Positions 11,304 through 61,000 of a DNA stretch of 64,000 nucleotides are shown here, piece by piece. The position numbers and the translations under genes were made by a program. A model generated the notes under the pieces. It had not been told where the DNA came from. It searched no databases and saw nothing but the letters and a program-made list of their open reading frames with translations. Every line of letters begins with the position of its first letter. Within the stretch, counting starts at the first letter, position 1. The DNA is from Chara braunii (taxonomy: Eukaryota > Plantae > Charophyceae), in contig BFEA01000028.1 of NCBI GenBank assembly GCA_003427395.1, positions 1,249,521 through 1,313,520 of the forward strand, read 5' to 3'.

Positions 11304-11321
11304 TCAAGCTAACTCATTAAC

Positions 11322-12488: not shown

Positions 12489-12492
12489 ACGT

Positions 12493-15108: not shown

Positions 15109-15284
15109 AATTTGTAAGGAAACCCGGGGAGGGGCCTTCACTGTGCGGTGAAGCCAAGGGGTACAGTGCCTGTCACTTCACTGCCCCCGCTTCGGAGGTC
15201 CTCAACGACCAGCAAGGTGTGCAAGTTTCGGAATGCCCGTCAATCGCGCGCCCATACAAGACTCTTATTCACTTTGTTCAGGAA

Positions 15285-15585: not shown

Positions 15586-16597
15586 GTTTTTCAAGGAACA
15601 TGAGTTTCAATGACATTGTGTGCNTNTATGCAGAAAAGACCTCACAAATCTTTGNTGANATGCCTGTTTGGAAGTAACNTTTGCGGTATGANTCAGCAGT
15701 TGCTCGCCCATCCACCTTCACACAGTATGTATCACAAGGTGGATTATCCAACAATGAGAAAATATTTTGAAACAACCCCCAATTTGAAAGTCCATGCAAG
15801 ACAGTTCAATCATGACGCGACTAGAAATCTTTTGGTGGGCCACTCTTGGCGTTGATCAGACGACAGTTATTCTCAACCGAGGGGTTTATGCACCTACTGG
15901 GTTTGGTTCTCACTTCCTTTCTCTGCACACACTCTCTCCCTCTCGGTACGCTCTCTCTCCCACTCCGCTCTCACTTTTTTCCTCTCTGCACGCTCTCTCT
16001 CCCTGGCTCGCTCTCTCCCCCCCTTCACACTCACTCTTTCCCTCTCTGCACGCTCTCTCTCCCTGGCCCGCATTCTCGCTCCGCTTCCCCCAATTCCCTC
16101 TCTCTCTCTCTCGCACGGAGTAGCCCTCTTGCGTGCGAGCAGATTGTAACCAGGTTGGCACGAAGTCTTAAATGATGTGTTCGATTGAGCAACTCTCAAT
16201 CGGCCAGCATTATAATCCCCAGTAATACCCTGAATGGCAATTTGAAATCGATTCGGTTCAGGGTTTGGAACGACACCCTCGTCCGAGTTGATCTCGATCG
16301 ATCTGAAATAAAGTTCCTTAAAATGCCCTTAATTCAGNCGCTTGTAAACGATCGGCCTCTTGAGGTCTAGGAATTAATGGAGTTAAAATCTTTCAAACAT
16401 AAGATAAAGAAAATAAATAAATAAAACATAATAAAAGACTCAATTGTGCTATATAAAAAAAACAGAAGTATTTGTCGGGGTCTAACCAGCGAAAATAGTT
16501 ACCCCCGTCAGCGACGGTATACTTCTGCCTGTTCGGACTGATTTGTGAGGTCAGTTGTTCCCATCAGCAGCAGTGGACTCTTGCTTAATTTGACCAC

Positions 16598-16897
16598 TCC
16601 CACAGGGTATTCTGGACAGATCAGCAAACGTACTTCGGTTAGTCCGCTCGCAGAGGCTATTCGCAGCAGATCAACAAGTATACTTTGATTAGCCTGCTCA
16701 CACAGACTATTCTCGTTAGATCTGCAAGGGAACTTTGGCTGACCCGCTCACAGCGGCTATTCTCAACAGATCCGCAAGTGTACTTTGGTTAGCCTGCTCA
16801 GACAGGCTATTCTCGTTAGTACTGCAAAGGAACTTTGGCTGGGCCGCTCACAGCGGCTATTCTTAACAGATCCGCAAGTGTACTTTGATTAGCCCGA
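16598..16897. repeat. ~50-bp tandem repeat, about 6 copies with ~99-bp dimer period, in the LTR
   Basis: GCTCAC...GCTATTCTC...AGATC.GCAAG...ACTTTGG units alternating between two variants. Confidence 0.85.
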
Positions 16898-21854: not shown

Positions 21855-22747
21855 TTCGAGGTGGTAAGTTCGATTGGGCAATCTCTTCCCCCCTCCCCCC
21901 TTCCCCTCCTCCTGGATCTTTTCTTGCGTTCTTTGGTTGTAAATTGGGGGGATGGGCGAGTGGTGAGGAAGATTGGGTTGACTTGTAAACAGGAAGGCTG
22001 GGTGAGGGCGCGAGAAGTGGGATGGTGGTATGAGGGGGTGGGATAGTGAAAGCTAGACAGCTGGATGCACAGGGTTGCAAGTGAGTGGTGGGTTTTACCG
22101 CATCCTGTTTTGGCCACGTGGCAACAGGATTGACGATTTTCATTTTTAGCGGCTTTTTACAACTTAGGATTTGGCCACGTGTTAGGGCAGGCAGCGCACT
22201 GAGGATTGGCATCGGGGCTGCTTGTGTGGTTGATTGGCGGGGCAGGCGGAGAAGTGACGATGGCACCGGGGCCCCCACCAACTCCATCACGTACCCAAAT
22301 CGCTGCGCCCCTATATATTTCCTCGTCTCTCTCACAGCTGGCGCTACCCCTGCCCGCGCGTCGCGGTTGTCCACGTCACCAACAGCAGAAGCCATGTGGC
22401 CAATCAAGGAGCCACGCACGTCTGCCAGGCACGCGCACAGGCCTAGCATCCGAGGAGCTCCCCTCCCCGGGCGCTAGTCAAGCCGGGGGAAATGGGTCTT
22501 ACCGGTCCGCCGGCATCAGGGCGCTAGCGCTAGCGCAGCTGCTTGTGTCGCGCACCAGCGCTTTGGGTGGCCAGGTCCTGAGAGTTTGTTCATGGGTCTT
22601 TTCGGGCGGGCTGTTACCAAGCCAGGTGCTGTCCTTGTAATAATGGGGGGTGGGATGAGGTGCCGCCTGGCTGTTGCTGTGTTGTTGTTGTTGTTTTGTT
22701 TTCACATTCTTGATGAGCGTGCAAATCACTTGTGTTTTGTTGTCTTT

Positions 22748-22794
22748 TTTTGGACAATTTCTCGATTTATGTGTGTCATCCTTGCGCAGGGACC

Positions 22795-22826
<32 letters not shown>

Positions 22827-22844
22827 ACGGATGTCCCGAAGGAC
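22748..22844 (-). ncRNA. U6: U6 snRNA, near full-length copy (probably a retrocopy or pseudogene)
   Basis: Minus strand GTCCTTCGGGACATCCGTTAAAATTGGAACGATACAGAGAAGATTAGCATGGTCCCTGCGCAAGGATGACACACATAAATCGAGAAATTGTCC. ACAGAGA and AGC are intact. It ends in A7 rather than an oligo-T terminator, and no TATA is evident at -30. Confidence 0.9.
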
Positions 22845-27624: not shown

Positions 27625-27830
27625 CAGAAGCACTAAGAGCATACTTACTCACACTCGGCCCTCAAACTTGCAAAATCACAGAATAACCGGCCAGATCGAG
27701 TCCTTGTAAAGGAAGGACTATATCTGGCCGGTCATTTGGGATTTTGGGATTTTGGGATTTTGAGGGCCTAGTGTGAGTGTGCCCTAAGAAGAAAGTTAAA
27801 AAAAAAAGAGTTGATTTCAATGATTTCAAT

Positions 27831-27908
27831 TGATTTGTACATTTCATCCTTGTGCAGGTGCCATGCTAATTTTTTCGGCACCTTTCAGATCTTACAGGGT
27901 ATCCCGAG
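27831..27908 (-). pseudogene. U6: Degenerate U6 copy
   Basis: Plus strand TCATCCTTGTGCAGGTGCCATGCTAAT is the reverse complement of the U6 ISL region. Confidence 0.7.
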
Positions 27909-28148
27909 CCTGTGTCTCGCTTGAGGAGATTCATTTCAAGCATCCACGGGTCCCTGCCATCCGATATCAAAATCTCACGGCCGAAGTGTGACCAGGTTGA
28001 AAAACACTCGAAGCAAAAACAGACACGCAAAACAACGCAGTGCGTGCGAACACATGAGACGCGATGGGGCCTCGCCACACCATTCTTGAAACGATGAAAG
28101 GTTTCAAGAGCTGTCAGGCGTTTTCAAGAGTTGCACTTTCAAGAGGTT

Positions 28149-36303: not shown

Positions 36304-38319
36304 AGTGTGCCTCTTTCATGAACTTTCTGTTATTCCTTGTTAGCTATTGAAAAAATAAAAGGAGGGAAAAAAAAGGGAAACTATGTGGTGTCGACCCTGT
36401 CGAGCGCATCAGTCCTGCAGGGGGACCCTCATGGCCGCGTCACGTAGGATTTGTGAAGAACTTCTTCGCAGTGGAGCTTTCCGCCGCTTCGGCCAAGTGC
36501 GCCAACCATACCTCTCGTGAACCCCTAGGATAGGATAGGTCGCGCGAGGTACAACTTACCTTTGCCCAAGGGGCTGTCACCACCCTTGAACAGGCGTATC
36601 CCCACCGAGCTGCCGAACCACATGCGAAAGCTACTCAGTTGCAATCGCAGAGGTGGCCCAGCCGAGGGCATTTCTTATACGCTGTAGCATAGGGGGTATG
36701 CGCGGTCGCACGCCTTAATTGGACCCATACGCGAGTCGTCGCTCTGGGGGCTGCTGTCCCAAGTGCGACTCGGCGTCGCTCTACTAGGACGGTCCATCTA
36801 ACCACGTGATACACACTTCAAAATAAAAAATCAAGTTACACACACAAAACACGCCTAGTCCTTTTTGGTATCCAACCCACACCTTTACTAACATAGAAAG
36901 TTGTTGGGCGTCACACGCGAGGCTCAACTAAATGTCATGAGGATGCAGACTTTGTCATATCGACTAGCCATGCATAAATATGTAAGCAGTCGCAAAAATG
37001 GCGTACTATGTAGTACCGATAATCATGTGGCCCTCAAAGGTGTTGAGGGTCGCTTTCGACACTCAAGTGTCGACTGACACCCGCCTTAAGGGGACAATCT
37101 CTCGACGTTGGACAATCGCTAATGTGGTTGCGAGTCCTACCCTCTTTTGCATCCTGCGCGGATGAGAGATAGGCGGGCCTTGACCCATTGTAGCAGTTGA
37201 ACACCTCTAACCTTGAAAATGGGGTTCCACCTTTGAAGGTTTGAAAACAGGGCAAGGAATTTGACTTTGACAGTTGCTACGGACCTTAACGTCCAACCAT
37301 GAAACTTGTTTGAAAAGAAAATCTTATTTTTTCTCGATACAATCCGTTTCACCAACACGCACGGTCATATTGGACCACACAGATATACCATATACAAACA
37401 AAGGGGTTATAGAAACACGAGGAAATCATTTTCGCAATTACAGTGTGACTCCCTTCATAAATATATTTATGATCGCAGACAAAGTCAAATTTGAAACTCC
37501 ACTCACAAAACATATCTGCAATTACATCAATGATTCAACATTGGCAAACCACGCACTACATGGGTTCAACTTCAACCACTCTCTGCACTCATACCCCTTT
37601 ACCTTATCCATACAAGCCTCAACATTTGTTTAAAAATAAAACACTCAATACATTTTAAAATTGTTATTCAATAAAAGTCGAGGTAAAAACCCAAAGAAAC
37701 AATTCAACCCACAGAGGGCTAAGACCTTTAGGATGAGTGGCGAGAATGAGTGAGAGTTTAGTCATAAATCGACAAATCGACAACCGATTTGTTATCAAAA
37801 CGTAACAAAACATGATCCTTGTAGAATCAAGTTGAAACCCGTCAGATTTTGAATCGATATGGTCGAAAAAAATACCTATATCCCAACACAGACCAATTAT
37901 CAAACTAAATTTTAAGTGTATGGAGAATAAACCTCATATCATATCTGACACAAAAATTTATTAAGACTAACTTTATATCTACCTTACAACGGGGGCAAGA
38001 AGAATAAGGAAAGTTTTGGCAACATCTTCCATATACAAGATTGATTGTCAAGATTTTTCCTATCAAAATATAATCTAACTCCGCAAAGCTTAAAATTTTT
38101 AGCAGCATTCCCTAGAGAGAAAGTGTCTTTCCATAATTTATACTTGACTGAATATAAAATTTGAAACCATTTTTAACTCTAGAGAGATAAATTTTGTCTA
38201 ACTCTTTGAATTACTAAAAATTTTAGCAGCATCTCCCTTAGAGAAGTAGACTTCCCATATTTATAAGAAAAGTAGACTTCCCATATTTATACTAAGTTGG
38301 ATATGAACACAAAATAAAA

Positions 38320-38850
38320 CTTTTTTTTTTTTTTTTGTTAAACAATGCTCCAATTTATTTGTGAGAATCAACACGGTCGCGAACCAGGGCCAAAATCTTT
38401 TTTTAGAATACAAAATGAGCTACCGGGGCCATTACCCGACTTCGGCTAAGAACAATTGAAAAAATCGAAAAACTAAGAAGCATTCATGGTCCACTACTCA
38501 AACACTACCAAGTCATTAGAATGTGTGTTAAAAAGCTTTCCAACCATTAATCAAATAGGTGAAACATATTCAATCCACCTACGACCACTACCAGCATGGC
38601 TGTTTTCAGCACGAACCGAAGCTCTTCCAAACCTCATGCTCCCGTCAGGCTAGGTTGAAGAGTTGCATTACCTTGCTTCAGCACCGGCCAACATTGCTCT
38701 ACTTACAACCCCCGATGACAACCGAGACTGCCCCTGCAAACAACCCCCCAGATCTCTCTACCAGGTCTCATACCCATTAAGCTAGGTCACAGAGTCACTT
38801 GGCTCTGGCTCCGGCCAGCGTTGCTCCAACATCCGTCTTCAAGGGGCATC
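38320..38850 (-). mobile_element. Poly(A)-tailed retroposon inserted in unit A
   Basis: T-run at 38320-38337; CCGGGGCCATTACCCGACTTCGG is the inverse of 45436-45458; absent from unit B. Confidence 0.65.
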
Positions 38851-41701
38851 AAATTTTTAAAATCTCGTAGCAAGATCACAGATGAATTTAAGTTCTTGCT
38901 AAGATAAAATTCAAGTTTTTGCTAAGACAAAATTCAATTAACTACTTAGATTTGCATAAATTTTGGTTGCACTCCCTCTAGAGAAGGGTCATTTCAAAAT
39001 TTGATCAAAACTAAATACAAAATTTGAAAATAATTATGACTTCGCAAAGTTAAATTTTGTCTAACACCTTAATCTGGTAAAAATTCTGGTAGCACCTCCC
39101 GTAGAAAAGAAGGTTTTCCAGATTCTTACTAAGCCAGATATGAAACTCAGACAAAAGTTAAATTTTGAAAAGTCAAAATTTGATTAACTCCTTGGTTTTG
39201 CAAAAATTTAGACAGCACTTCCCTTAGCGAAAGTGATTTTCTAAAATTTATATAAAGCCAAGTATGAAACATAAGCTTAACAAAAAAAATGCAGAAATTG
39301 AACTAACTCCTATGACTCCAGCCCGTGACAAACATTTAAAGCAACTACCTACCAAACTTAATACTCAAACTGAATAGAGCTTACACTCCACCACATGCAA
39401 GTTCATACCACAATTGGTAAGTACTCTTACAACAGCCAAATCATTCAGCTTAGAGCCAATGCCCGGTCCTTTAGAAAACAAGCAATAAACATAGCACTGA
39501 GTCATTCAGCTTAGAAACCATGCTCAACCTTTAGGAGTCTGTAAACCGTATGCAAAATCGTCTTACTCCCACCTTCCCCCAGTTCATCTCTTAATCTGAT
39601 TTCAATCAGAACAAAAGAAGTTGAAATTAACACATGCATTCCTTTCAATTAATATGATTTACTTATGAAAAGAACACAAAATCATCGAGGAACATATGCA
39701 TATCTCGCAGACAAACCAGAGAGATGTAATAGAAGGGATATAGTGGGTTCACACAGGCAAAAGGAGGTATACCTGACAGTTCTCTGCCTCCAAAATCTCA
39801 CCTAGATTCTGGCAGAGCTCCCACAATCGGTGGGGCGAACCTCCCACAAAGGCCTTGACATAGATTACGAGTTTCAATTCCGCTTGCCGCCTTCCTCTCT
39901 CAACCCATAGATTAGACTGAGAGTAAGAAAGGCAGAAAGAAAGATATTAAGTCGCTCAAATACAAGAAAGGTGTGCTCAGATTCGCGTGAGAGGGCCTTG
40001 AAATCTTGACGCGCATGAGGGTCCCACAATGGTAGCTAGTTTGCAGTGAAGATGGTCCAACCTCAATTGATACACAAGTACACTGCAATCTGACAACCCT
40101 CCAAGGCGTAATAGTAACCCCATTTGCAGTTTTGACGACTCCCTCAAGTCGTGACGGCGCTCCTTCTGACCAAACCGCTACTACGCAGCCTACCTCGTGC
40201 TCTATTCAAATTGCATGAGGAAACAGAGTATAACGTAGCAAAAACACAGTGTGCACTGTGAATGCACAGTCCGTGGTTCAGAACTACACACGTTGATGCT
40301 ATTGTAGCGAAGTGAAAACAACAATCATGGTTCAAAACCCATGGACACAATGCCAGCAACGCGCTGTAACATAAGATAGTTTCTCCCCTTTGCGAAAAAG
40401 TATAGCAAGCTACTCCAATATTGCAGCCTTTTTGAACTGTGCGGAGCAGCAGCAGTTCCAAAAGGAGTATCAACAGTTCTCCCAAATCCTCACTCGTAGC
40501 ACAACCTGGACTTATCTAATGGCCGACCAGATTCGTTCACAAACCGGAATGAGGCACTGGTTCGTTATGATGGAGGTTAGTAACAAGAAGCCCAACTATG
40601 AATGAAGCGCGGGTAACGAGCGAGGCCAGATCGTGAGTGCATAGCGTAGATCACAATCGAGGCCTAGTGTCAGACCCACGATCAATGCGCACAAGTAGTA
40701 GAGTACTGACTTCGAGTTGACCATCACGGTGAGGAATAAGACCGGGGTGGGAATGAGTAAGCAATTGTGACTGTGATTCGGTCGACGGGCTCGAGAGTTA
40801 AGTTGGGTGACAAGCGAGGTGGCTAAATCAACCACGGAGACAAGCTCCCTACGACTTCGACGAGGATAACTACGTTGAGCATCATGATGGTTTTGACTAG
40901 CATAATGCCATAATGATTTCAACAGTATGACGCTCTCCCTCTACCGTGTGTACACCATGAGAATGACTCTTCCGCTGGAATACGGAAAGATGCTCTGCCA
41001 CCTAAGCACTCCTATTCCCTGGGGTATGTAGTACTACCCTCTGACCCTTCTCTCCTTTGGATCCTATCTTTCTACTCCTTCTTCACCCCTTTAGCTGCTC
41101 ACACTCCCCTTCCTGTCTCCCTTTTCAGCCTTTATTCCCACGGTATGTATCTTGTCGCATGTGTGGCCAGATTTCAACAGTTATGAGAAGGCCGACTGGG
41201 AAGATGACAACAGTCGGACGGGAGATTGTCCCAAAGCGCGCACAGCGAAAGGTGGTAACCTCGACTAACCAATGCTACTACCTTGACGGACTCAAAGAAG
41301 ACTAGCACGACGACGAATGCACGGTGAACAGCGCGGATGGCAGCGATCCTGATGAGGTACCGGGATGATCATAACATCAACTACAAATCAGCACAAGTCG
41401 AAACCGCAGCACCTTCGGACGATTGCTCCAAAATTACAATGCCAAGCAGTGCTCACCCCAAACGGGATTACACAACTATAGCGGGCAAAAGCGCTGGCAC
41501 GGAGAGGGTGGTCTCGAGTAGCATGAAAGTGACCACACTCGCAGGCCAAAGCACCGTGCCACTACTCACCGAATGTGCAAGACGAAGGAGAACCTTCCGC
41601 AAGGACATGGGAAGACACATCGCGAGGAACAGACCTGCAAAGAAGTCTCGGTGTGAGTATAGGCTAAGGAGTTGTCAGATGCAAATATCACCACACGCGC
41701 C

Positions 41702-41703
<2 letters not shown>

Positions 41704-41759
<56 letters not shown>
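41704..41759. repeat. (GA)n microsatellite
   Basis: Direct reading. Confidence 0.98.
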
Positions 41760-41761
<2 letters not shown>

Positions 41762-43488
41762 TTTCATCGAAAGGGTGAGCAAAAAGGAAATGGCTCTGTC
41801 GGCAGAATATGGAAATATACATTGCTTTTCAGCCATGGTCACTAGAGAGAGGCTACTTCCATTGATAGGATGCGCAAAATCAGAATGAATCTTCCACTAG
41901 AACCCGAAAGTATTCCTTGCTCTTCAGTCACGCGCGCAGTAACATAGAGAGGAGTTACTTCCATCGATAGGATACGCAAAATTGGAATGAATATTCCGCT
42001 AGAACCCGGAAGTATTCGTTGCCACTCCGAAACCGCTCCTCCCGTCGCAGCTCCTGCTGTTTACTCCGCCAAATCCCCCTCTCAAACCCAAAATCCGGCG
42101 TGCCCCTTCTCTTCGCAACGCTCCGAAACCCCGAGGTAGCCACTTGGTTTGTCCAAATCGGTCGAGAATAACCGAGATACATTGAATTCTTCATCGCCCT
42201 TCCTTCTCTCTGACTTTTCGACTCTCACGCGCAGTCCTTCTTCTCCTAACTCTAATCCTACTAACTTTCTACCCACAGATTCGTATTCGCCAGCCCAAGA
42301 AACCCCTATGGGCCTCGTTCGACACCACTAGAAAACCCTTACATGTAAGGGTTTCATCGTTCCACCTCTCCCTAATGACGAAAAAAAAAATGCGAAATTT
42401 GTTTTCACATTCGCGGGCGTAAGGGCGAGCCCTACAAAAATGAGGGCTCCCCAACCAAAACGGACGCAAACGCAAGAACGGTCGTGGAGGTGACTTGAAA
42501 GTAGGGGTGGCGCCCTTACTTTCCACGGGAAAACTGCCGACATTTTTGTTTTTTTTTTTCCTCAGGTGTTTCCTTCCCGTTCCTGGTCCAAACGCTGGGT
42601 TGTCCGATACACCATGGGACGGCGGTTCCACGATAGTCTCCAACGGGCAGCGCCGTGGCCCGGCTGTGGCCATGCGGTACCTCCGGCTAGCCGTTTCGGC
42701 TTGCGTGTGGAGACGACTGTTGCGGGGGTCACCGCGGAGGCGGGCGCGCGAGTGTCGTTGGTGGCGTCTGTTTCGAATTGGGTGGTATGCGCTGCCCGTC
42801 GCCTGCTGGGCCTTTTCCGCGAGCTGCTATATTGCACTCCTCTGCTACCGCGCTTTGTCGTCATCGAAAGGTAGCAGATCTGTGTGTCATGTTTGGCTGC
42901 AGGCGCGCATGGCTGACATGGTGAGGAAGCTAGCTCTCCTAATTTGTCCTGATTGGGGCAGTGGTGCTGCTCATAGCTCTGCACGCGTGCCACCTGGCTG
43001 GTGCTCGCATCCAGCGTGGAAGGAGGAAGGGGTTGAAGACGCTTCGACAGGGCGCATCGGGGAGCAAAAGGATGGGGGACGAATACAGTCGGGGTTGTGA
43101 GGGTTTTGGGATGGGGAGGAGGGCGTACGGGGGAGGGAGTGGAATGCAACACAATCTCCACCACAAGTTTGATCCAAATTTGTATTCGCATCTCCTCCCC
43201 CTTTTACTTCCACCGAGAGCCTAGCGGCATATGGCAATCCCATCTGCCATAGTCGCTCTTCCGCATCGCAAGCTCTCTTCCCTGCCTTCATGCGCACATG
43301 GCACGACTTGGAGTCCAGGTTCATCTGCAGCTCCAACAGTCCCGCTATCCAAAGGGAGTTTCGAGGTGAACCCGCTGCTAGACGGTTCGTTTAGTCTTTC
43401 GCCACTATGTGCAAGTCCGACGAACGGCCCGTACACTAGCGTGGCTGTGACCTCCGCCAAAGTTTTCCTCTGGCCTCGCCCTACTCAG

Positions 43489-43560
43489 GTGCCACCCTGC
43501 GCAGTGGGCTGTGCTAATCTTCTATTTATCATCCCAATTCTACCGGATGTCTCGAAGGAC
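43489..43560 (-). pseudogene. U6: U6-derived segment in unit A
   Basis: Minus strand GTCCTTCGAGACATCCGGTAGAATTGGGATGATAAATAGAAGATTAGCAC...CTGCGCAGGGTGGCAC. Confidence 0.75.
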
Positions 43561-43796
43561 GAACGATTGCGCGTCAGTATCGCTGCAAGCCTTCCCCAGC
43601 GCCCCCTCCCTGCCGCCGCCCTACTCAAGCATAGCTCAGTCCCAAAGGGCACACTCACACTCAAACCTCTCACCACAGATCGAGCCCGCTGGCTGGTGCA
43701 TCCGAGGTAAGTACCCACCGGCTCGGTGCATGCAAGCCCCCTATGTCCGCTTCGAGTCGGACAGAGGAGTTTCGCTTAGCACTCTGAAGTCAACTG

Positions 43797-43850
43797 GACC
43801 ATACTAATCTTACCTGAATCGCCCCAATTTTAACGATTGTCCCGAGGGGC
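43797..43850 (-). pseudogene. U6: U6-derived 5' segment in unit A
   Basis: Minus strand GCCCCTCGGGACAATCGTTAAAATTGGGGCGATTCAGGTAAGATTAGTATGGTC. Confidence 0.6.
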
Positions 43851-44785
43851 AAACGGCAGTCCCATGAGTGGGATTGCACATGATTTCATCTGAGATGTGA
43901 TCTACGCCTCAATAGTTCATAGGTGCACCAGCCCCGCCAGGCTCTAGGGCATCAACACCTCAAATCCGGCACCGAAATTGGTACCGTCCATGAGCGAAGA
44001 TGGGACAAGAACAAAAGGAGCCAAAATAAAATAAAATAGAAATAAAAATAAATCATGAGAAAGTGAGGAAAGGGAGAAACCTTTGGCACCCTCCTTTGGT
44101 CCTGCCAATCGGGCCCATGGTTGGGTTTGGTAAAAAAAACAAGGGGAATAACCTCGTCAGGCCCTAAATCCCCTTGGTTCCTCGATAATGCTCTAATGCT
44201 CCTGCATGGCTTTCCGTAGGCTTCAATCCCTGAATTCTCCTGATGAAAATCCGATATCGTACCCAATAGTACTAGATTCAAGGACGACACTAGCAGCCGT
44301 GCAAATCTATATAAGTAGATGATGTGCGATGCTCGCTTCTGCGAACACGTACCAAGGCCGCACCTTGGCCTACTGTCTAAATCCATGGCCGTTGGGCTCC
44401 CGCGCCTACCGCGCGGAGACCTTTGCCCACGTTCTATCCCTTCCACACTCGAATTACCACCAAAAAGTTGCACTACTATCGATGTTGTTTTCCGCATGAG
44501 CGCACGCACGTCATAGTCACATCAACAAAAAATCACTTAGTCCTAGTTTAATCAAAGTCAGAAGTTGGCCGGCAAACACGCAGGCTCTATAACATCAATT
44601 AAAAAAATCACGCGTGCCTTAAAACTGTGCCCCCCCACACTCTCTACTTTTAGTCAACCATCCAGTCAACGTAAACGAAACACAACCACGACTCGCGTGG
44701 TGTATTTAAAATTCCGAATCAAACTCTTTTTTTGTCACTTGCAAAAACCAGGGCAGATACCCTTATAAGGGTATTCGCACCAACA

Positions 44786-44978
44786 ACGGGAGTTGCAAAA
44801 ACGAGTTATAATTGCACTATGGGCCAAGATACAGTTTGCAATTGCGATTCGGGCAATGTATACAACACATCTTTCTGGCCAGATAAGGTGCCCGAAGTGT
44901 GATTGCAAACTGTATTTTGCCCCATCATGATAGTGCAATTACAACTCGTTTTTGTGACTCCTGCGTAGTTATCCCCTC
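44786..44978. mobile_element. Mutator-like MITE; its left tip lies at ~36375-36388, separated by unit A
   Basis: GAGTTGCAAAAACGAGTTATAATTGCACTA is the inverse of TAGTGCAATTACAACTCGTTTTTGTGACTC; a second family member lies at ~57427-57640. Confidence 0.75.
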
Positions 44979-48500: not shown

Positions 48501-50769
48501 CCAAACAACTGAACGTGCGACCAGGAACATTTACGTTGTAGATAAGGCCCAAGCGTTATACAAGGGTGAAAAAAAAACAATCCATCTTTTCGTTTCGTCC
48601 TCCCCCGTGTGATCCGGTGCACGTGCCCTAAAGGCAAAGTGTTAGGGTTGTGACTTCGTCCTTTCTGGACGAGGGCCGCCCGTGTCACCACACGGGAACC
48701 AAATGCCTAAAAAAAACAGAACCAAATGCCTCAAATTTTTGAGACTTTTGGTCCCCGTTGTCGAGCGCATCGGTCCCACAGGGGGATCCTCCCGGCCGCG
48801 TCACACAGGATTTTGCAGGACTTCGTCGTAGAGCGCGGGTTGCCGCTCCGACCGAGTGCGCCAGCCGTACCTCTCGCGAGCCCCTACGACAGGATAGGGT
48901 CACACGAGGCACGTCTTACCTCCACCCGCGGGAGCTGTCACCATCCCTTGGGTGGGCATATCCCCGCCGAAATACCGAACCACATGCGAAATCTTTTCGT
49001 ATACAATCGCAGAGGTGGCCCGACCGAGGGCGTTTCTCGTTCGTTGTAGCATAGGGGGTACGCGTGGTCAACGCCCCTCAATCGGACCCGCATGTGAATC
49101 GATCCATTGGGAGGTTAAGGTCTCAAACACGACTCTTCGTCGGTCGACTAGGACGCATCCTACATACCACGTGTTATACCACAACACTCACACACACGGA
49201 AGGACACAAACAACATAACAACACAATAACACTCCTAGTCCCTTCAGTGTCCGACCCATAACCTTTTAACATGGAAATCGGTTAGGCGTTGTGCATGAGA
49301 CTTAAGATAAAATCACGCGGGCGCAGGGCTTTCTCATATCGGCTAGCCATGTAAGCATACGCAAGCAGTCGTTACGATGGAGTACTGTATAGTACCTAAA
49401 ATCATGCGACCCTCAATGATCTCGATGTCACATTTTGACACTTAAGTATCGGTGGACACGCGCCTTGAGGGGTCAATCTCTCGACGCTAGACAACCGCCA
49501 AGGCGGTTGATCACCACACCCTCTTCTGCACCCTGTGGAGAGTGGGTGGTACACGGGTTCATACTTGTGGTGGCAATCGTCTCTTATTGCGCTAGAGACC
49601 AACTCCACCATCCAGGGCGTGGAGAGAACTCAAGGGGTTTGACTTTGACGGTTGTCACGAACTATAACGTTCAACTATAAAATTCTAAAAAGCAAAAAGA
49701 TAAAAGGGGAATGTCCCTTTTCTCTCAACGCATAATCTGTTTAACCTTTGCGCACGGTCACAATAGGTCGCGCGAACATCCAACGCGTATGTATGTACGT
49801 ATATATAGAAGGTTATAAATATATGACGATCACTTCTCACAATCACAACGGGACTCCTCTCAACCATATATACTTAAGTGATCGCAGGCAGTCGAATCCA
49901 AAGTTTGAACCACCAAACATACCTGTTATCACAGCAAAGATTCAACCAAAAATTCATGCACTACACGGGGTCAACTTCAACTATTCTTTGCGTTCACACC
50001 CCCCGCTTTAGCCATACAAACCTCACTCTTTGTGCAACTCTCAAAATAAAATACTCAGCATCTTTATTAAACGGTCATTCAAATAAAGTCCAGGTAAAAA
50101 CACAACGAAACAAATCTAACCACAGGGCTAAAGCCTTTAGGTTGAGTGGCAAAAGTGGTTTGGAGTTGAGTCGAAAACCAACGAATCGGCAACCGACCTG
50201 TTATCATCATAGTAGAAAATAATCTAACTCTCCAAATTCTGCAAAATTTCGGCAGCGCTTCCCGTAGGAAAAATGTCTTTTCAAAATTTTTAGGTGTCCA
50301 AAAATGACTAACTCTTTCAGATCTCTAAAATTTCGGCAACGCTTCCCGTAGGAACAGGAGACTGCCAAGATTTATACAAAGTTAAAAATGCAAGGACAAA
50401 TTTTAAACACAACTATACTTGGGACCAACTTCTGACATTTACTTGATAGTTAGAACCAGAGATAGTTTGCACGATCCCTTATTGAAGACGACATCGTGAG
50501 CTAACACCGATCCTAACTCCTAGTAAGGTCAGTCATATCTTATCCCAAGTTTCTCTTTCATCATCCATCTCTCCTACCTATAGCTCCAGCACTTAGCGAG
50601 CACCTAAAGCAACTAACCTACTGAAAGAGAAGTCCCCAGAGATAGCCTCAAAAACATACACATGTGAGTATAACAATATCTCTCGCCAACCCTCAGGTTC
50701 CTTTCCATGTCGCATAGTTTGTTAAAAAAACCTTGTTATTCTCTTTTACCCTTCCTTACATACGACATA

Positions 50770-52390
50770 GGATTAGCCAACCCAACTTATGGATGTGACT
50801 GACCTGTCAGTTTATATGACTAAGTCACACCAACTTATGGTGCCCTAGTCTGGTAGCACAAGTATACGTAGGGCATAGGATCAAATCACACCAACTTATG
50901 GTGTGACCATTTTCTCCCTAGACGATTTACATAAGGCGTATGACCGGGCCGCACCAACTTATGGTGAGGCTAGTCAGCCTGAACGCTCGGCATACACAAA
51001 GAACCGAACCTCCTCAACTTATGAGGGGTCAGCCTTCGCTTGAACAAACGACAAAAGGCATGACTAGAACACACCAACTTATGATGCGTCTGGCCAGCCC
51101 AAACGGTGACATATGGCGTAGAACCAGGCTACCCAACTTATGAGTAGTCCAACCCAGCCTAGACAAAACCACATGCACGAATGACCAAACAACCCACAAC
51201 TTATGCGTTCGCCCAACCTTCGCAATACAACCATGTTCAACGAATAAACATAAGGCATAAAACTCACCACACCAACTTATGATGTGATTGGCCTCCGCCT
51301 GAACGAGTGACATAAGGCGTATGACCGGGCCGCACCAACTTATCGTGAGGCTGGTCAGCCTAAACTTTCGGCATATACAAATAACAAAGCCGCCTCAACT
51401 TATGAAGGGCTCAGCCTCTGCCTAAATAAATGACGAAAGACATATGACCATGATACACTAACTTATGATGTACCTAGCCAGCCCACACGATGACATATAG
51501 CGTAGAACTAGGCTACTCAACTTATGAGTAGTCTAGCCCGCCTAAACAAGCAACAAGCCCGTGTGACTGAACAGCCTGCAACTTATGTGTTCGCTCAGCC
51601 TCCGCAGCACAACTACATTCAATAAGTAGAGTCACAAGTTCTTTCTTTCTTTAGACGAGTGGTCAAGTCACCTCAACTTATGAGGCTCCCCATCCAAACA
51701 TCAGCTTATGTTTAGAAAGAGAAATAGCCAAGTTTTATATTATCTCTCTGCCCTTTGTGTTATCAGGGGCATAGGACCAACTACCCAACTTATGGATGAG
51801 TCAACCTGCCCAAAGTTACCACTTAATTTTATACTCTGAATCTTATTTTCTCCTCTGCTTTATCTGCTACCGGCTTATATGGTAGATCTCCCAACTTATG
51901 ACATTAAACCTGCCAATGATATACATAGTATATAGTTATATCAGATTGTATACTCAAGTTCCACTTATGTTCGCGGCTCATGACTTGATCACACCAACTT
52001 ATGGTGTGACTAGCCTGCCAAAACAAGTAAACATTAGTTATAGGATTGATCCACACCAACTTATGGTGGGGTTAGTTTCTGCCTAGACAATCGACATAAG
52101 GCGTATGACCGGGCTGCACCAACTTATGGTGAGGCTGGTCAGCCTGAACATTTGACATACACAAAGAACTGAACCACCTCAACTTATGAGGGGTCCAACC
52201 TTTGCCTGAACAAAACGACGAAAGGCATATAACTAAACCACACCAACTTATGGTGTGGCTAGTCAGCCCATACAATGACATATAAGGTAGAACCAGGCTA
52301 CTCAACTTATGAGTAGTCTAGCTCCACCTAAACAAGCAACATGTGCGTGTGGCTGAACAACCCACAACTTATTCGTTCGCTCAGCCTCCA
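50770..52390 (-). repeat. Array of 24 stem-loops with a conserved CAACTTATG core, ~60-bp period and 6-unit higher-order repeat
   Basis: Cores at 50783, 50831, 50892, 50955, 51015, 51075, 51134, 51197, 51273, 51336, 51396, 51459, 51518, 51579, 51674, 51786, 51892, 51995, 52057, 52120, 52180, 52244, 52303, 52365. Confidence 0.93.
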
Positions 52391-54876
52391 CAACAAAACA
52401 ACAAATAATGTCACAATTTCATTTTGTCTGAATTCCCACAGATAATCTTACCTTGTCATACATACTTGCCAATTTTACCTTTCAGATTATGTCATGAACT
52501 CAAAACAAACAAAAACAATTAACTTTCTCAGTCATACTTACAGACACACAATAACAAAGGGTAATACAGTTTAAGGGAAGGGATCACACACGTAAAATGA
52601 GCATTATACCTTAGTGTTCTCTGCCTCCAGAACCTCACCTGGGCTCCAGCAGAGCTCCCTCAATCGATGGGTGGACCTCCCACAAGGTCTTGCTGCGGTC
52701 CTACAGGTTGCAATCCCGCCTGCCGCCTTCCTCTCGTAACCTTAGACCAAACTTAGAGTAAGAAGGGCAGAAGGAGGGGTTTCAAACACTCGAGATACAA
52801 GTGAGGGTCAACTCAACTTACGTGAGAGGGCCTTGTAATCTTCAAACGTCTAAGGGCCCCGCAATGGCAGCCAACGACGCAACTCAGATGATCAAGAACA
52901 CGGTCAGAACGCAGAGTAACACTCCCCTGATGGCTCTTCAACCCGCAACAGTGACCTCGTTGTAGAGTCCGTTCACTCCTCCAATGCTACAATGGCTCGA
53001 GGTAGTGGACGGCGGGAATCATAGCAAGTGAATATAGTATGGGGCAGACTCGGCGAAGTGCCGCAGGATACGGCAAAACTCAACAAAGCCTCAACAAGAT
53101 GCAACATTGATTCTCGGTAGGTCCAACTGTCCTATGGATCTCAGCTAGTCGCACCGAAAATACGAGGGAACACAATGATGCATTCCGAACGCATGGGGCA
53201 GCGCACAGTGGGTGCACAACGAAAACGTGGGTGTACTCAGCAAACCATGGCTAGCACAACACAACACAACAATGCCACACAGACAAAGCAAGACTCAACA
53301 ATCGAGCCCAACAGTGTGATAGCCGTATGCATAACGTCTCGTCAAGTTACATTGTACACAACAATGTGAGGCAAGGCCCAGCAGCAACGAAAGCACAACA
53401 GGATACGGGGTGTACAGCGAACCAACGCCACGCACCAACTAGCATGGTGAACTACAACGGATGTTGTGCAACAACATTAGACATCAGATAGCCTCGTCCC
53501 TCCTCATTAGACTGTCACAGAGGCAGCAACATCCCTCGAAAGCACGACGGTATCGTCGGACTCGACTTCAGCATACCGACCGAAGATCGATTTGGTAATG
53601 CTTCCAGACCGGATTGTGACTGAAACAGCCTCAGTGTAGGCAAACCTTGACCACGCAAGCCACCGCCTTAGCCAGGAGCAGTTGGTTTGGAAACGCCAAG
53701 TTACGAGTATAAGAAAAAATCACGCCTTGACTGAAGTGACAAGTCAAAATAGGATCACGACGAACATGCCACTACGACCTTGTAGGAGAACCCCACAACC
53801 AATATGGCAAAGTACGAGTGATCATTACTACTGTAAGCACGGACGAGATGGTTTTTTTTGGCGGTGAAAACGAATCTTATTCCCTTCGTCTACACTCCTC
53901 TGCATTCCAAATGTGCAAAATGAGAATGAATCCTCCACTAGATCAGGACCAGATGCAGTGTCAGGTAAGCATCATCACTACACCGAGCACATCAAGCAAC
54001 TTATAGACGATGAGCACCCTGGTGAACAGTACGGCCAGCAAAGCGAGCGTAAGAGATGCGAAATCATGCAACGCTCAGAAGAAGAGTACTTCTGCGACGG
54101 TGATCACACAGTCGTTGGTGGTATGATCTCGGCGGTAGCAGGTAGTAGGACCGCGATGATGGTAAGTGAGAAGGCGAATCAGCAGAACGACAGATGCAGT
54201 GCTAACTATCGTGATCCGTACAACCACTACTACGATTGACACGATTATCATTACGATCCGATCATAACAAGGCTCGTAACAAACACAAGTCGGCCCTTGC
54301 TCCGCTCCTATCAGACGAGCAAAACGAGAATGAATCTCCCGTTAGAATACGGGAAGATGCATAGTGTCAGGACCTTGCTGCTGCGTCCGCATTCTGACAA
54401 AATGAGGACGAATCTACCACTACAATTTTCCATTTAAACTTCCTGACCAGCCACCTGATCTTGACCGGTGTTGTCCGCAATTACGCCTAAGACCGTGTTG
54501 CGATTGTTGCGCTGAAGACGATAGCCGGGGTGGTTTTGACGGAAGTAGTTTGCTCAGTGCAGCATAGAGGTAAGGACCATGATCGGCGTGGAGGAAGGTT
54601 ACGAGCATGACGCAGAGCGCGACCTTGATGATGACGAAGATCCCTAACAGAGGACAACCTTGATGATGACAAGCGTGATAGCGAGCTGGAACCCGTTGTG
54701 ATAGACAACGCTCCATAGCTTCACCGAATATGCAAATGAGAATGAATCTCCCGCTAGAAATCGGGAAGATTCATCGCGAGTCAAAGTCGCTCATTGTCAT
54801 GCCTGCTATTGGTCAAAAAAAAGAGTGGGTCTTTCGTTAGACCCCAACCGGACGCACACACAGGTGAATCCCTCCT

Positions 54877-55099
<223 letters not shown>

Positions 55100-55377
55100 G
55101 CGTAGGCGCGCGTCCAAAGAGTGTTTACCAAAGCGTTCTTGATGACAACGGCCGGCACGTGGAACACTTGCACAGTGAACGACGAACACGCTGGGGGCAG
55201 ACTCCACATTGAGGTACGTTCCCTCTTTCCCTTTCACTCACTCTGCATCTCCATTCCTCTTCTCCTTCGTCAACTCCTTTGTCATCCTCGTCTACTGGAC
55301 CGCGCTGTGCGATCTCACAAACACTCTAACCTGCGGACCGTACATACACACGCAAAGGGACACTAAAAAGAAAAATG

Positions 55378-55469
55378 AAACCGTTTCTTGATTTATACAT
55401 ATTCTCTCCGTTCAGGTTTACACTAATCTCCTTGGTATCGTTCCAATTTCACCGGATGTCCCGAAGGAC
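55378..55469 (-). pseudogene. U6: U6-derived segment in unit B, near full length and followed by T-runs
   Basis: Minus strand GTCCTTCGGGACATCCGGTGAAATTGGAACGATACCAAGGAGATTAGTG...ATAAATCAAGAAACGGTTTCATTTTT. Confidence 0.8.
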
Positions 55470-56280
55470 TACGGCCTCGTGACAGCCTTAAGCTATCTTC
55501 ATCGGGCTGATCGGGCCCAGACAGTGTTTTCCGGTCCTATTCACTCGGTGCCATAGTCCTAACTCAGGTCTGTACTTCAATAGTTCATGGGTGTACCAAC
55601 TGAGCTAAACCTATTGGTACCTTTGCCAGCTCTGGAACCAGCGCCTGGGCCGTGTCCCAAATTGGAACCAAAAGGTATATAAGAATAAGTAAAAACAAAA
55701 CAAAAATAAAATAAAACAGCAGAACGGGGAGGGGTTTCATGTGACCAACGATACACAGCCTCTGCGCTAGTGCCTGTTGGTCCTCGCCCCGCCCAGATAT
55801 AGTTCACCGTCTTATGGGTCCCTGCAAGCAAGCTCACACTCATACCTCTCACTTCTCAAATCAGGCTCAGTTTAGTGGGCGGTGTATCCCCTGGCCACAA
55901 TTGCCCATGCCTTTCCACCACTCCGCGGGTCCTGGAGGCAGTAGCAAATGTTTAAATGGAGACTGCGAGGACCGAAGCGGAGAAGGGTTCCGTGCACACA
56001 GTTGTACACAGTCAGTGTTGCTGCTGTAGCCTCTGCCCTGGTCCCCCACCCAGGCATAGTCCACCATTTCATGGGTCCCAGCGGGGACACTCACACTCAA
56101 ACCTCTCACAACAAAACGTGTTTGGCGGATGGTGCACCCACGGAGGGTCCCCGCCACTCAGGTTTCTTCCGCCTCGTGAGCCAGTCACCCACCGGCTCGC
56201 ATGTACGTTGACCCCTTGGCCCACGTCCCGGGCTAGGCAGAAATAGAGAGACTTTCTCATCCCTCGAAGTGAACAGCCAA

Positions 56281-56328
56281 GCTAATCTCCTTTGTATCGC
56301 TCCAATTTTAACGGATGTCTCGAAGGAC
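56281..56328 (-). pseudogene. U6: U6-derived 5' segment in unit B
   Basis: Minus strand GTCCTTCGAGACATCCGTTAAAATTGGAGCGATACAAAGGAGATTAGC. Confidence 0.82.
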
Positions 56329-57394
56329 CTAGGCCTGTACTTTTCAACAGTTTCCGGGTGCACCAATTGTGCTACGCCCGCAGGTCCCCGCACACAACCC
56401 CAGTACTAATATTGGTGCCACATCCCAGAATCAGGACTGACAACTAAAAATAATTAAAGAAAAATAAAAATAAAACTAAAACTAAAAATACGAACATCGG
56501 GGACTAGTGCTTTGGGGAGGGAGACTGTCGGTGCCGCCTCTCGGTTCCGTCAACCGGGCCCATGGATGGACCAGCAACAAAACCAAGGGGGATAGCCCCG
56601 TCGGGCCCTCAACCCCCTAGCATCTTCAACAGCTGCAATGATCCATCGCCGCCGGTCGCTGCCCTCGATCCCCGTACCTCTACTTTGAAAGTCCAACACC
56701 ATGACCAATAATATTAGGCCCAAGGCTGACCTTAGCATTCGCGAACACCTATGTAAGTGGGTACCATGCAGTGTGCGGGTCCACTGAAGCATTCCAAAGC
56801 CACACCCCAGTCTATCAACTAAGTCCACGATCGTCAACCTCCTGCGTCCATGGCGCGGAGGTCCCTACTCGCGTTCTATTTTCTCTCGCATGCTGTAATC
56901 ACCGCCCAAAAGCAAACATTACTGCCTAATGACATCTTCCGTACGAGCGCACACGCACCATGGTCAATTCAACATAGAGAAAAACCCTTCCTAGTTTTAA
57001 TCAAAAAAATCAAAAGTTTGTCGGCAGGAACGCCGACTCTATGACATCAAAATAAGAATCATCACGCGTGCCTCAAAATTGCACGCCCACACACTCTCTG
57101 CTTTCAGTCAACCATCCAGTCAGCGTGAAACACAACCACGACTTCGCACGGTGTACTCCAATTTTGAACAAAACTTATTTTTTGTCACTTGCAAAAACCA
57201 GGAAGGATACCCTTGTAAGGGTATTCGCGCCGACACCGTGTGAGTATGCCCTGAGGTAGGATAGTAGAGGCAGGGGATGCGCTGGGAGTATTAACGTGGG
57301 GATGGGTAGGGTAGGTGCCCTATCCTGTTAGGATAACTATTGGCTGCCGCTACTAGCAATCTCTGCGGGTCTGGTCCTTGGCCTCTACAACACC

Positions 57395-57640
57395 CTGGGC
57401 CAAGATACAGTTTGCAATTGCATTATGGGGCAACTTTAGTAGAGTCACAAAACGAGTTATAATTCCACTATGGGCCAAGATACAGTTTGCAATTGCATTA
57501 TGGGGCAAGATACAGTTTGCAATTGCACTTTGGGCACCCTACCTAGCTAGAAAGCCGAGTTGTATGCATTGCCCCAACTGCAATTTGAAACTGTATCTTG
57601 ACGCATAGTACAATTATAACTCATTTTTATGACTAACTAG
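57395..57640. mobile_element. Mutator-like MITE with internal duplications
   Basis: GGGCCAAGATACAGTTTGCAATTGC repeated; same family as 44786-44978. Confidence 0.7.
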
Positions 57641-57649: not shown

Positions 57650-60600
57650 AAACGATGTCCACCGATCAAATCCTTACCAACAGTTCAACCAACATCCTCC
57701 ACAGGGGATTTTTATACCTAGCAAAATTCCTCAATGCCCTCACGAAAAAAATAATTGGGATACTTCATCTGCCTTAACTCCAGTCTCAGATGCGTTGCTG
57801 CAGTCCATTCGATCTCGCCTAACACAAGACCAAAAGAACACCCTGGATAAGCCCATAACCCTTAAGGAGGTATGAGAGGCCCTGCAACGTATGGAAGATG
57901 AGAAGACACCGGGAATCGACTCCTTCCCAAAAGAGGTTTGGGTGCAGTTTTGGGACCTTTTTCACCATGATATCATGGAGTTCATAACAGTGATACCAAA
58001 CGAGGGCTCCTTTGGAGGGATGATTGGCCAGGGTGTCACGACTCTCCTTTACAAGAAAGGGGACAGAGAGAACATCAGGAATTACAGACCTATCACCCTT
58101 CTCCTTGTTCCCTATAATTGGTGGCCAAAGTCCTCACCAATAGACTGTTACCCCTGATGAACTTGCTCATTCACCCGGACCAAACGGGGTTTGTGCCTAA
58201 CCGCAACATCCAGGACAATATGCTCCTGGTCAACAAGACGATCAAATATGTCCGCCAGAGGAAAGTCCAAGCAGCGATCCTTTTCATAGACTTTGAAAAA
58301 GCGTATGATCACGTAGACTGAGACTTCATCGATATGTGCCTGGTTAGGAGAACTTTGGCCCGACCTTCTATCAATGGGTGCACCTTTTGCACAGGTTGGC
58401 CACAACTAACATAATGCTCAATGGTCACCTCTCACCGCCGATCTGCCTCCAGAGATCGGTGCGCCAAGGACACCCCATTGCGCCATTGTTATTCGTAATC
58501 GTCATGGAGGCCTTGACATCGTTGATCCGATCTCACCCTCAAATCAGCAAAGTGCATATCCCAGACATACCCCAGCACCTCATACCTGTGACATCGCTCT
58601 TTGCAAATGACCTCACCGTACTCATACGTGCTGATCCGACCAGCCTCCAAACCCTAGCTCAAGTCATACACCTTTTTTCATTGGCTGCAGATATGAAGGT
58701 CAACTGGGGCTCAGACAGAGGGTTGGTGGCTCCACCCACATGGAGACCCCCCCCCACCCGAACCGAGTGTATCATGGGCCCGCAAAGAAGAAACCATAAG
58801 GATTTTGGGTGTGAGACTGACAGCGGAAGGCCCCCCGCTCGACCATGGAGACATGCTGGTCTATATGGCAGTGGACAGACTGGCCAAATGGGAAGGTTTG
58901 CATACATCACTTGTGGGATGCGCCTTGGCAATTAATAGTGTCATCCTTGTAGCCATCTGGTACAAAATGGTAGTGTGGCCACTGAATAAACAGCAGCACG
59001 CCAGACTGAAGAAGGCGCTCACAACATACCTGTGGAAAAACAGTGTCAAAACTTAGCAAAGCCTCAACAGGGTGAAATGGGATGTGGTCACAAAGCCTAG
59101 ATCTATGGGGGTGTTGGGGATCCTGGGCCCTCAGAGAGAGAGCGAGGCACTTATCTTCAAGGTTCTTGTCCGACTGTTAATGGGGAATGATATCCCTTGG
59201 GAACCGCTGGCCTGCCTGCAAATTGCCAACCTTACCCCGCAATCACAAGTGCCTAGAATGGTGCGCCCATTTCAGTGGCTGACAAACAACCATTGGGCCA
59301 TTCCATCGCCCCCAAAACAAGCGCAACCAGTAAACCCGATACATGCTACAAAGTTGGATATATCGGTCGACCCCCTCTGGCCCTACATGCTCAAACTCTG
59401 GAGGCGAAAAGGGCCACAACAGAAACACCCCCCCAACAAATGACACGATATATGAAGGCAACCTCTCTTTGGCAACCCGCATCCTTCAAGAAACAGGAGA
59501 CCCATTTCCCCTGACAACGAACTCTCTGTGACTCAATTGGGCCAAAAAGGGAGTATTTACTTTAAGGGATCTGTGGGACCCAATCAGTGGGGACTGGACA
59601 CCCCCCAACCAACTAAGAAATAAACTCAAGCATGTCAAACATATTGAAGGAAACGCTGGTCTGCTGAGAGAGCCACTCCCTCTCGCCTGGTGCCTAACCT
59701 TGCAAAGGGGCCCAACAGTCAAAAAAGACGATTGGGTGGTTAGATACTCATACCAGTGCTGCCACCATGTCATTTTTAAAGTCATAAACAATGTGGACGG
59801 TGCATGCGCATTGGAAGCCTACGAACCACAACTGTCTGGGGCAAGGTTCTCCAAAGTGATAAAAAACACCGACCTGGACTTCACACACGGGTGGGCTGGT
59901 CTGATGCAGGTGAGGGTGGTAGGAGATCCACAAAACGGCCACTACACATTTCAGCCAGCCACGCCTGTGGCCAAGCTCCCCTTTGACCGGACTGAGTGGG
60001 AGTGGCCTGACACTCGACCTATGCAAATATGGGAATATACAGTCAGATATAGAGCATCGTGACAAGACCAGCTAATCAACAACACAATTGCGGACAGATG
60101 GGAACGGGACTCACCACTAGAACCAAAACTGCAACAATCTTTCACGTGGTCTACATTTGCGAAGATCATGCTCACAAACCACAGGTCTCTACAGTGGCAG
60201 ATCCTGCACCGCTGCCTCCCCACCCCGGACTGGTTAGTCTCCAAAACAAACCTGGAACAGAAAGGGGAGTTGTCTCCCATCTGTGCATATTGCACGAGGT
60301 CTCAAACGCCAGCCCGTGCGACCCTCGAGCACTACATGCTGGCATGCCCAATGGTCACCCAACTCTGGCAGTGGTGGGACACGGCATTCCATTCCCTCAC
60401 AGCCTATCATATTCCCTGGAACGTTCGCCTTCTGCTCCTGGGAGACAATTGCCAGCTGCAGGCTCACTGGTCTCCATTCGCAACCAACCTGTTTTCATAC
60501 ACACGGTTGCACATCCTCATGCTGGCATGGAGAGCCAGATGCTCCTTTGAAAGAAAAGAGCACCAATTCGGCCTGCAGCAAGCACAACAAGCTATCGAGG

Positions 60601-61000
60601 AACACATCAGCACCAGGACTCGAGAAGCTTGGAAGCGGATGAAAAGTGACCTTCTCGAGGAGAAGACCCTACTGCTAAGCAAGCAATCCGCGACTCCTAC
60701 GCACAGATTTCGCAGGATCCAAACAGAATATTCTCTGAACTGGATGCCACCCTCAACATCATTTGGAAACCATGGAGGAACACGGAACCCAGATGGCAAA
60801 GGAGATCTTTCTCCGAATTCCAAGTTCCTTACCTCCGACCCAACTTTGTCCTCCTCGCGCCTCCGCAGCCATAACAGGACTGAGACTACCCACCCCCGTC
60901 CCTCCCCATCTTCCCCCCCCTGCCCGCCTTTCCCCCTTCTCCCCCTTGTCCCCCCCCCCTCTCTCTCTTCCCCAACTGCCTGCTGGGGATAACGGGGACA
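57650..61000 (+). mobile_element. Decayed, 5'-truncated L1-clade LINE ORF2 (RT and zf-RVT)
   Basis: KTPGIDSFP, LYKKGD...NYRPITLL, QTGFVPNRNIQDN, IDFEKAYD, VRQGHPIAPLLF, LFANDL (degenerate FADD) and CAYC...EHYMLAC; several frameshifts and stops. Confidence 0.93.

Follow-up and report, generated by a model that had tools for sequence, protein, structure and literature searches.

A tandem array of candidate hairpins with a conserved core and co-varying arms in a non-coding element of Chara braunii

Within a 64-kb window of Chara braunii DNA (the whole stretch analysed, 64,000 nucleotides), a tandem array of candidate hairpins was found, in which a short core is held nearly invariant while the arms beside it differ from unit to unit and change in matched fashion. 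The core is under strong constraint. The array is a real and selected feature, with less independent evidence behind it than its appearance suggests: because the units form a six-monomer higher-order repeat, the 24 stems cannot be counted as independent and represent about six stem types. The array may be a docking site in many copies, carried on RNA of the element itself and serving packaging or export; this reading draws on predicted folding and is held tentatively, at slightly less than even confidence.

The exact core AACTTAT was counted 24 times between positions 50784 and 52372, in all cases in one orientation and mostly at a spacing of 59–64 bp (period ~61 bp), in agreement with the 24 cores about 60 bp apart recorded in the first-pass annotation of this DNA. 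The whole window contained 31 exact cores. Twenty-two of the 24 in the array had the form AACTTATG, and the reverse word CATAAGTT did not occur in the 64 kb. With up to one mismatch allowed, CAACTTATG gave 39 matches in the window compared with 12.8 expected, 26 of them within the array. The array lies in a non-coding element, el2, which has a sister element, el1, in the same window (Table 1).

Table 1. Coordinates of the array, its host element and related features (positions in the window).
Feature	Position	Strand	Remarks
Sister element el1	36398..44785		same ends as el2; about 69–74% identical in three blocks
Target-site copy CCGT, left of el2	48755..48758	+	right copy at 57236–57239
el2, host element of the array	48759..57235		8,477 bp, non-coding, ends TGTCG...CGACA
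Possible 2.4-kb intron containing the array	50198..52609	-	predicted
Older repeat motif, two copies in el2	50252..50372		TTCC-CGTA-GGAA type; main repeat of el1 there
Hairpin array	50770..52400	- (only mildly favoured)	24 exact cores and two one-mismatch cores (51703, 51962)
Higher-order repeat copy 1, monomers A–F	50863..51235	-	
Higher-order repeat copy 2	51244..51617	-	
Higher-order repeat copy 3	52028..52403	-	
Conserved non-coding block	52580..52871	-	74% to el1; ends AG/GTATA, GT at 52609
Two U6 5'-half fragments and a 28S rRNA fragment in el2	55370..56328	-	U6 85–90% to the copy at 22744–22844; orthologous in el1

The six monomers of the higher-order repeat (types A–F, about 385 bp together) were present in three copies, accompanied by single units, and the types were 46–63% alike outside the core. 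All four inner pairs were Watson–Crick in 12 of the 24 units, three in seven units, and at most two in five; the two one-mismatch cores were without clear stems. The five stem examples given in the first-pass annotation were all found at their places, and its description of a fixed loop on variable stems stands, with the qualification that inner pairing is poor in 5 of 24 units and that only about six stem types exist. A further copy of the element carrying the array, designated L083, was obtained from the metagenome scan (81–84% identical, with its element end truncated) and contained two higher-order repeat copies with 19 cores within one mismatch. Tandem Repeats Finder did not detect the array. 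A 121-aa minus-strand open reading frame running across it was rejected as a gene, having neither a homolog nor a Pfam match.

Selection on the core was evident from the comparison of repeat copies. Across five aligned copies, variation affected one of 42 core columns but 61 of 141 unpaired columns elsewhere (Fisher p = 6e-8), and the same contrast was obtained when matched for A/T/C (p = 1e-6). Between the window and L083, a count by eye over all slots gave differences at 4 of 140 sites in 20 orthologous cores, compared with 15.9% for the flanks of orthologous units (p = 7e-7 versus core). All slots of the higher-order repeat were occupied in all five copies, so the bias from choosing units by their core is small. 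The core was also kept in weakly paired units, namely type F and the unit at 51893.

These values bear directly on the possibility of a neutral satellite in a decaying element, in which complementarity would stem from a palindromic founder together with template switching. Tandem and higher-order duplication is clear, the copy number differs between the two elements that carry the array, and tandem arrays occur in other elements of the window too, all of which would suit such a satellite. Decay, however, cannot hold a 7-nt core nearly invariant beside 16–50% divergence; this account is largely refuted and is regarded as highly improbable.

Pairing of the arms was examined at the level of units in 41 of the 45 units, the excluded ones being the window's two stemless one-mismatch slots and their L083 counterparts. 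Among 720 permutations of left and right arms over the six types, the true assignment ranked first on both strands, and on the minus strand own arms folded at −13.0 kcal/mol versus −8.5 kcal/mol with the arms of another type. Paired cells amounted to 76.6%, compared with 62.2 ± 1.9 in shuffles (0 of 500) and 35–46% when slid; this control ignores relatedness, and for two of its five measures the array did not exceed the shuffles (352 and 114 of 500). At stem positions 2–4 of types A–E, seven single changes were counted versus 16–18 expected from linkers (p = 0.003–0.009), and over whole stems 70 of 183 columns were variable, near the linker rate.

Two element copies with about six stem types were all that could be compared, and independent compensatory events were few: about four blocks between types (by eye) and one or two within types. 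A C:G to A:T double switch was seen in both D units of L083. Selection on loop sequence together with pairing, as proposed in the first-pass annotation, is supported by the constraint on the core, by the first rank of the true arms among 720 and by the depletion of inner-stem changes.

The same annotation had taken an excess of C·A mismatches as a sign of a minus-strand RNA with G·U wobbles. The excess is present in the raw counts (C·A to G·T 16:6 over six pairs), but local composition predicts 1.8:1 (p = 0.28), and after collapsing shared events the distinct wobble events numbered 7:5 over four pairs, 10:7 over six and 15:8 over eight. Over whole stems the ratio was 37:18, with p = 0.007 against even odds and p = 0.13 against linker rates. 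Given composition and shared ancestry, the bias is not significant, and it was rejected as proof of the strand.

Folding results differed in how far they separated the strands. The last 436 nt of the array reached z −7.0 on the minus and z −6.2 on the plus strand when compared with shuffles. Single units folded better on the minus strand in 38 of 41 cases, and in 27 of 41 when judged by z-score; the G/U richness of the minus strand benefits its shuffles as well. When DNA parameters were used, the two strands tied (−5.8 and −6.2). The consensus fold gave −123.0 with a favourable covariation term on the minus strand and −73.4 with an unfavourable term on the plus strand, and the left arm preferred its own right arm in six of six rows on the minus strand (one tie) versus two of six on the plus strand. 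In types B and E, fixed G·T pairs were present on the plus strand. When el2 was folded in sliding windows of 120 nt, only scattered windows fell below z −3, some of them outside the array.

The minus strand, on which the unit reads C-A-UAAGU-U-G, is thus only mildly favoured, with mild support from the alignment fold, the arm-swap diagonal and the splice-like sites described below. A plus-strand TATA-like sequence (49812–49825) and the words AATAAA and GGTAAAA (50083–50100) all lie in the conserved left block; they would fit a plus-strand promoter and count against a minus-strand reading.

The orientation of the U6 copies, which had also been offered as evidence for the strand, proved poor for this purpose. 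The U6/28S fragments form a single duplicated module already present in the common ancestor of el1 and el2 and so count as one event, and the window also has a separate, retroposed-looking U6; as proof of the strand, this orientation was rejected. The U6 5' halves run from the first U6 base and are interleaved with 28S fragments (43374–43850, 55370–55469 and 56079–56328), occupying matching places in el1 and el2 that were kept across about 30% divergence. In el1, a 28S piece joins U6 at a short shared word, resembling a reverse-transcriptase template switch. The near-intact U6 on the minus strand at 22744–22844 has an A-rich tail and look-alike flanks and is probably retroposed; a decayed second copy lies at 27802–27916.

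The main rival to a docking signal takes the core CAACTTATG as a site in duplex DNA, bound by a host transcription factor or by an element-encoded anti-silencing protein and multiplied through tandem duplication; the arms would then descend from a founder that was palindromic, with template switching restoring their match from time to time. In favour of this, conservation is highest by a wide margin in the core, which is retained even where pairing is poor, the spacing of 59–64 bp is near six helical turns, and the strand bias is not significant. A different repeat occupies the same place in el1, as VANDAL families differ in their VANC motifs. Repeated palindromes also occur upstream of the promoter in Sirevirus LTRs, according to the available text of PMC2829016, and template switching is able to generate multibase compensatory changes, according to that of PMC8794818.

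As an account of the arms, template switching without selection is nevertheless incomplete. Copying of arms would be expected to produce about 5–8 double changes within types under a rough model, whereas one or two were seen (p = 0.01–0.06), and the mismatch at stem position 5, which frequent copying should erase, was retained in all ten units of types B and C. Moreover, all cores face one way with no loop inverted, and the element ORFs scanned yielded neither a VANC-like protein nor any other. Recognition in duplex DNA is considered possible, although somewhat unlikely.

Two described systems come close to the array in this respect. The protein VANC21 recognises a motif of 9 bases in double-stranded DNA, and VANC target motifs are arranged in tandem in VANDAL elements (PMC5735166, available text). 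Like them, the array consists of an 8–9 base motif repeated in tandem in non-coding transposon DNA and specific to a family; the VANC motifs differ in being bound as duplex DNA, the available text reports no co-varying stems for them, and no VANC-like gene was found here. In Sirevirus (Copia) LTRs, repeated palindromes able to form hairpins have been described (PMC2829016, PMC4728375). According to the available portions of the second report, conservation in them is greater in the arms than at the centre, and a CGG-CCG core lies in CpG islands.

The array resembles these palindromes in having many short symmetric motifs, in a fast-evolving non-coding zone of a transposable element, with number and sequence varying between families. 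By contrast, its centre is fixed and its arms co-vary, the period of ~61 bp is regular, it is CpG-poor (o/e 0.57), and Copia identity of its host is not established; neither a CGG-CCG core nor a centre less conserved than its arms nor CpG islands were found in it. The first-pass statement that no described LTR feature is like the array therefore needs to be narrowed: Sirevirus palindromes and VANC motifs are related, yet in the available text neither has a fixed centre with co-varying arms.

On the preferred reading, one palindromic monomer of ~60 nt was amplified in tandem, its 9-nt core staying fixed and its inner arms changing in matched pairs, and the array would serve as a docking signal on RNA. 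The monomer is predicted to fold as a bulged hairpin with the loop UAAGU above A-U and C-G pairs. A protein would read the loop and require a stem, but no particular stem sequence, gaining avidity from about twenty copies, and the carrier strand would probably be minus. Such recognition would leave the loop fixed and the stems free to be exchanged. The anatomy of the repeat, the constraint on loop and stems and the matching of the arms are shown by the sequence comparisons; from these patterns we infer folding in vivo, RNA rather than DNA as the molecule that is read, the strand, the intron, the retroelement identity of the host, the partner and the role.

Packaging stem-loops of retrotransposons reportedly include those of the Ty1 5' domain. 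In the packaging of RSV, mu-Psi is read by Gag NC through its stem-loop structure plus loop bases (PMC5035971). As far as the available text goes, packaging stem-loops resemble the array in that structure and loop bases matter while stem sequence matters less, and in that they lie in non-coding RNA. They consist, however, of one or a handful of dissimilar hairpins close to the 5' end and next to the primer site, whereas the array comprises 24 like candidate hairpins in tandem deep in a possible LTR.

Splice-like sites were observed on both sides of the array. The donor-like AG/GTATA was kept in three of three copies, with conservation falling right after it; donor-like words on the minus strand of el2 numbered six in total. 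The acceptor-like AG/GT at 50198 was present in two of three copies, the next conserved block beginning after it, and el1 has AA there. As judged from these sequences, the array may lie inside a 2.4-kb minus-strand intron. If so, only unspliced RNA would carry the array, which would point to selection of full-length RNA, either for packaging by helper Gag or for nuclear export. The ~290-nt block next to the array (52580–52871; 39745–40036 in el1; 1920–2200 in L083) has long predicted minus-strand stems, with double changes in 7 of 75 pairs among three sequences.

A fuller scenario can be sketched for a charophyte retroelement with an 8.5-kb LTR, in which an intron-borne handle of ~24 hairpins on unspliced RNA would be gripped by a capsid or export protein in a family-specific manner; sister families would swap repeats at this place, so that the array would decide which helper mobilises which family. 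Taken as a whole, this scenario is doubtful and rather unlikely. The lack of the array in el1 counts against a docking signal in general, since the array is evidently not needed by the wider family.

The consensus 5' splice site is GUAAGU; in AUAAGU the first base is different, which leaves five U1 bases available for pairing. The loops might on this basis be splice-site decoys, pairing with the 5' end of U1 snRNA, retaining U1 on the transcript and blocking splicing or premature polyadenylation. The minus-strand core does read AUAAGU, one L083 unit reads GUAAGU, and the array lies just downstream of the conserved donor-like site. However, five base pairs is the most that can form, and the mismatching A was kept in 40 of 41 units even though G would bind U1 better, which makes decoys very improbable.

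Another role put forward in the first-pass annotation was that of a small-RNA precursor, here considered as a polycistronic transcript of the miRNA-like or hairpin-siRNA kind. Dicer would discard the loop, which is the array's conserved part. Monomers do fold to bulged stems of 15–20 bp, and palindromes of Sirevirus LTRs form hairpins that are siRNA hotspots (PMC4728375, available text). The arms, on the other hand, differ between types, and no Rfam family matched the array at the gathering threshold (best E-value 3.1). With conservation in the loop and stems both short and bulged, this is the least probable of the readings considered; host siRNAs may arise from the array as a by-product.

The nature of the host element bears on the docking reading. 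The first-pass annotation had placed the array in a giant LTR; what was found is an 8,477-bp TG...CA element with a 4-bp duplication, and no second copy flanks gag-pol in the window. The ends carry a short inverted repeat (TGTCGAGCGC / GCGCCGACA in el2, with similar ends in el1). The two flanks of el2 are the two halves of one MITE-like element's right terminal repeat, which fixes the insertion point; the left repeat of the split MITE-like element starts near 48261. A solo LTR from a Gypsy retrotransposon would be expected to carry a target-site duplication of 4–6 bp; el2 has CCGT on either side, and the flanks of el1, ACCC and ACGG, differ from each other. No pair of element copies around gag-pol was present in L083 either, and neither a primer site nor an adjacent purine tract was found for el2.

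No Pfam match was obtained for the 16 ORFs scanned of the 33 in el2 with at least 75 aa, and no Rep, helicase or integrase-like transposase was found in the element ORFs scanned. The conserved blocks were judged not to be coding, as only 2 of 46 indels in them were multiples of three and kept the frame. A giant LTR is plausible for el2, which on sequence grounds may be a solo LTR or a non-autonomous integrase-type transposon. Repeat catalogues in the Chara genome papers may bear on the element class.

The second option leads to Ginger1 DNA transposons, which have TGTNR ends and the target words CCGG or CCGT/ACGG (PMC2836005, available text). Both TGTNR ends and 4-bp target words were found here, the duplication of el2 being CCGT and the right flank of el1 ACGG. 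Ginger1 elements, as described in that text, differ in having terminal inverted repeats of 40–270 bp, a transposase, a length of 2.6–7 kb and a reported occurrence in animals, whereas el1 and el2 are 8.4–8.5 kb long, yielded no transposase in the ORFs scanned and have terminal inverted repeats that amount at best to 38 degenerate bp in el2 (p = 0.004; el1 not significant, p = 0.39 and 0.15). el2 may be a DNA transposon; such an identity would mean that no RNA is packaged.

This possibility brings in a further reading, that the hairpins are single-stranded DNA or cruciform signals in reverse transcription, integration or cut-and-paste transposition. Origins of HUH nucleases combine a fixed loop with a variable stem, which speaks for it, as does the finding that units fold about equally on both strands with DNA parameters. 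The degenerate inverted repeat of el2 and the Ginger1 words CCGT and ACGG (PMC2836005, available text) point in the same direction. The array, however, lies 2–3.6 kb inside the element rather than at its end, the ends of el1 are not significantly inverted, no Rep, helicase or transposase ORF accompanies it in the ORFs scanned, and 24 consecutive nick sites would be without evident use. Signals of this kind are decidedly unlikely.

In el1, the AACTTAT array is absent, and at its place (38092–39252) lies a ~124-bp repeat with an imperfect palindromic core. Just inside the right ends of both elements, at a distance of ~12 bp, a short conserved palindrome of the TACCCTT-N-AAGGGTA type was observed (57209–57226 and 44758–44775), and the left end contains a similar but weaker sequence. 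A short word of the GAATGAATCT...CTAGAA type occurs three to four times in the diverged middle of el2 (53925–54770) and of el1 (40960–42010), and also in L083. The element's left end was also recognised within the C. braunii gene model P0091, which was the sole match of a profile search with the left-end ORF; the residues of P0091 that precede the element end are compatible with CCNG, as far as a protein sequence can tell.

Relatives of the array were sought by pattern scans, similarity and a covariance model. In viral contigs, 81 stretches were returned for three spaced copies of AACTTATG and none for three stricter patterns; scans of prokaryote genomes gave 0 and 15 matches, and those of metagenome contigs 2 loci. 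BLAST of the array against all 98 pattern-scan loci matched only L083, and the remaining loci, having no BLAST match, were rejected as unrelated. Covariance-model scores of 29 loci were circular, since selection of these loci had relied on the core word; within the window and L083, the model found no extra unit outside the array at E < 1. In the literature, covered mainly through listings and open-access texts, no account was found of this array or of tandem arrays with a fixed loop and co-varying stems in Chara elements.

To our knowledge, the way in which plant and algal retroelements select their own transcripts to be packaged or exported is poorly defined. A tandem array whose loop is fixed and whose stems can be exchanged offers a ready test case for separating the reading of RNA from the reading of DNA. 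Should the array act as duplex DNA instead, it could represent anti-silencing of the VANC-like kind beyond Brassicaceae, and on either reading selection acts inside a repeat of a non-coding transposable element. The weight of these points is smaller if the array is confined to one subfamily, as el1 suggests.

Several other elements were noted in the window. Positions 1–19622 contain a disrupted minus-strand Gypsy element, in which pieces of protease, reverse transcriptase, RNase H and integrase are present and which is bounded by two stretches of at least 1.2 kb that are 94% identical. Its protease-region ORF (5082–6005) gave 90 matches, all from Chara braunii, the best being 88% identical, and two unexplained ORFs lie upstream (11322–12527 and 12493–13407). 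At its right end, about 6 kb of non-coding DNA contains tandem arrays of 46 bp and 50 bp, the latter with a self-complementary GGCTA...TAGCC unit. A palindromic MITE-like sequence was present just to the right of each sister element (44789–44961 and 57449–57627), and a decayed L1-like element on the plus strand extends over 57700–60990, with a reverse transcriptase fragment at 58348–58935.
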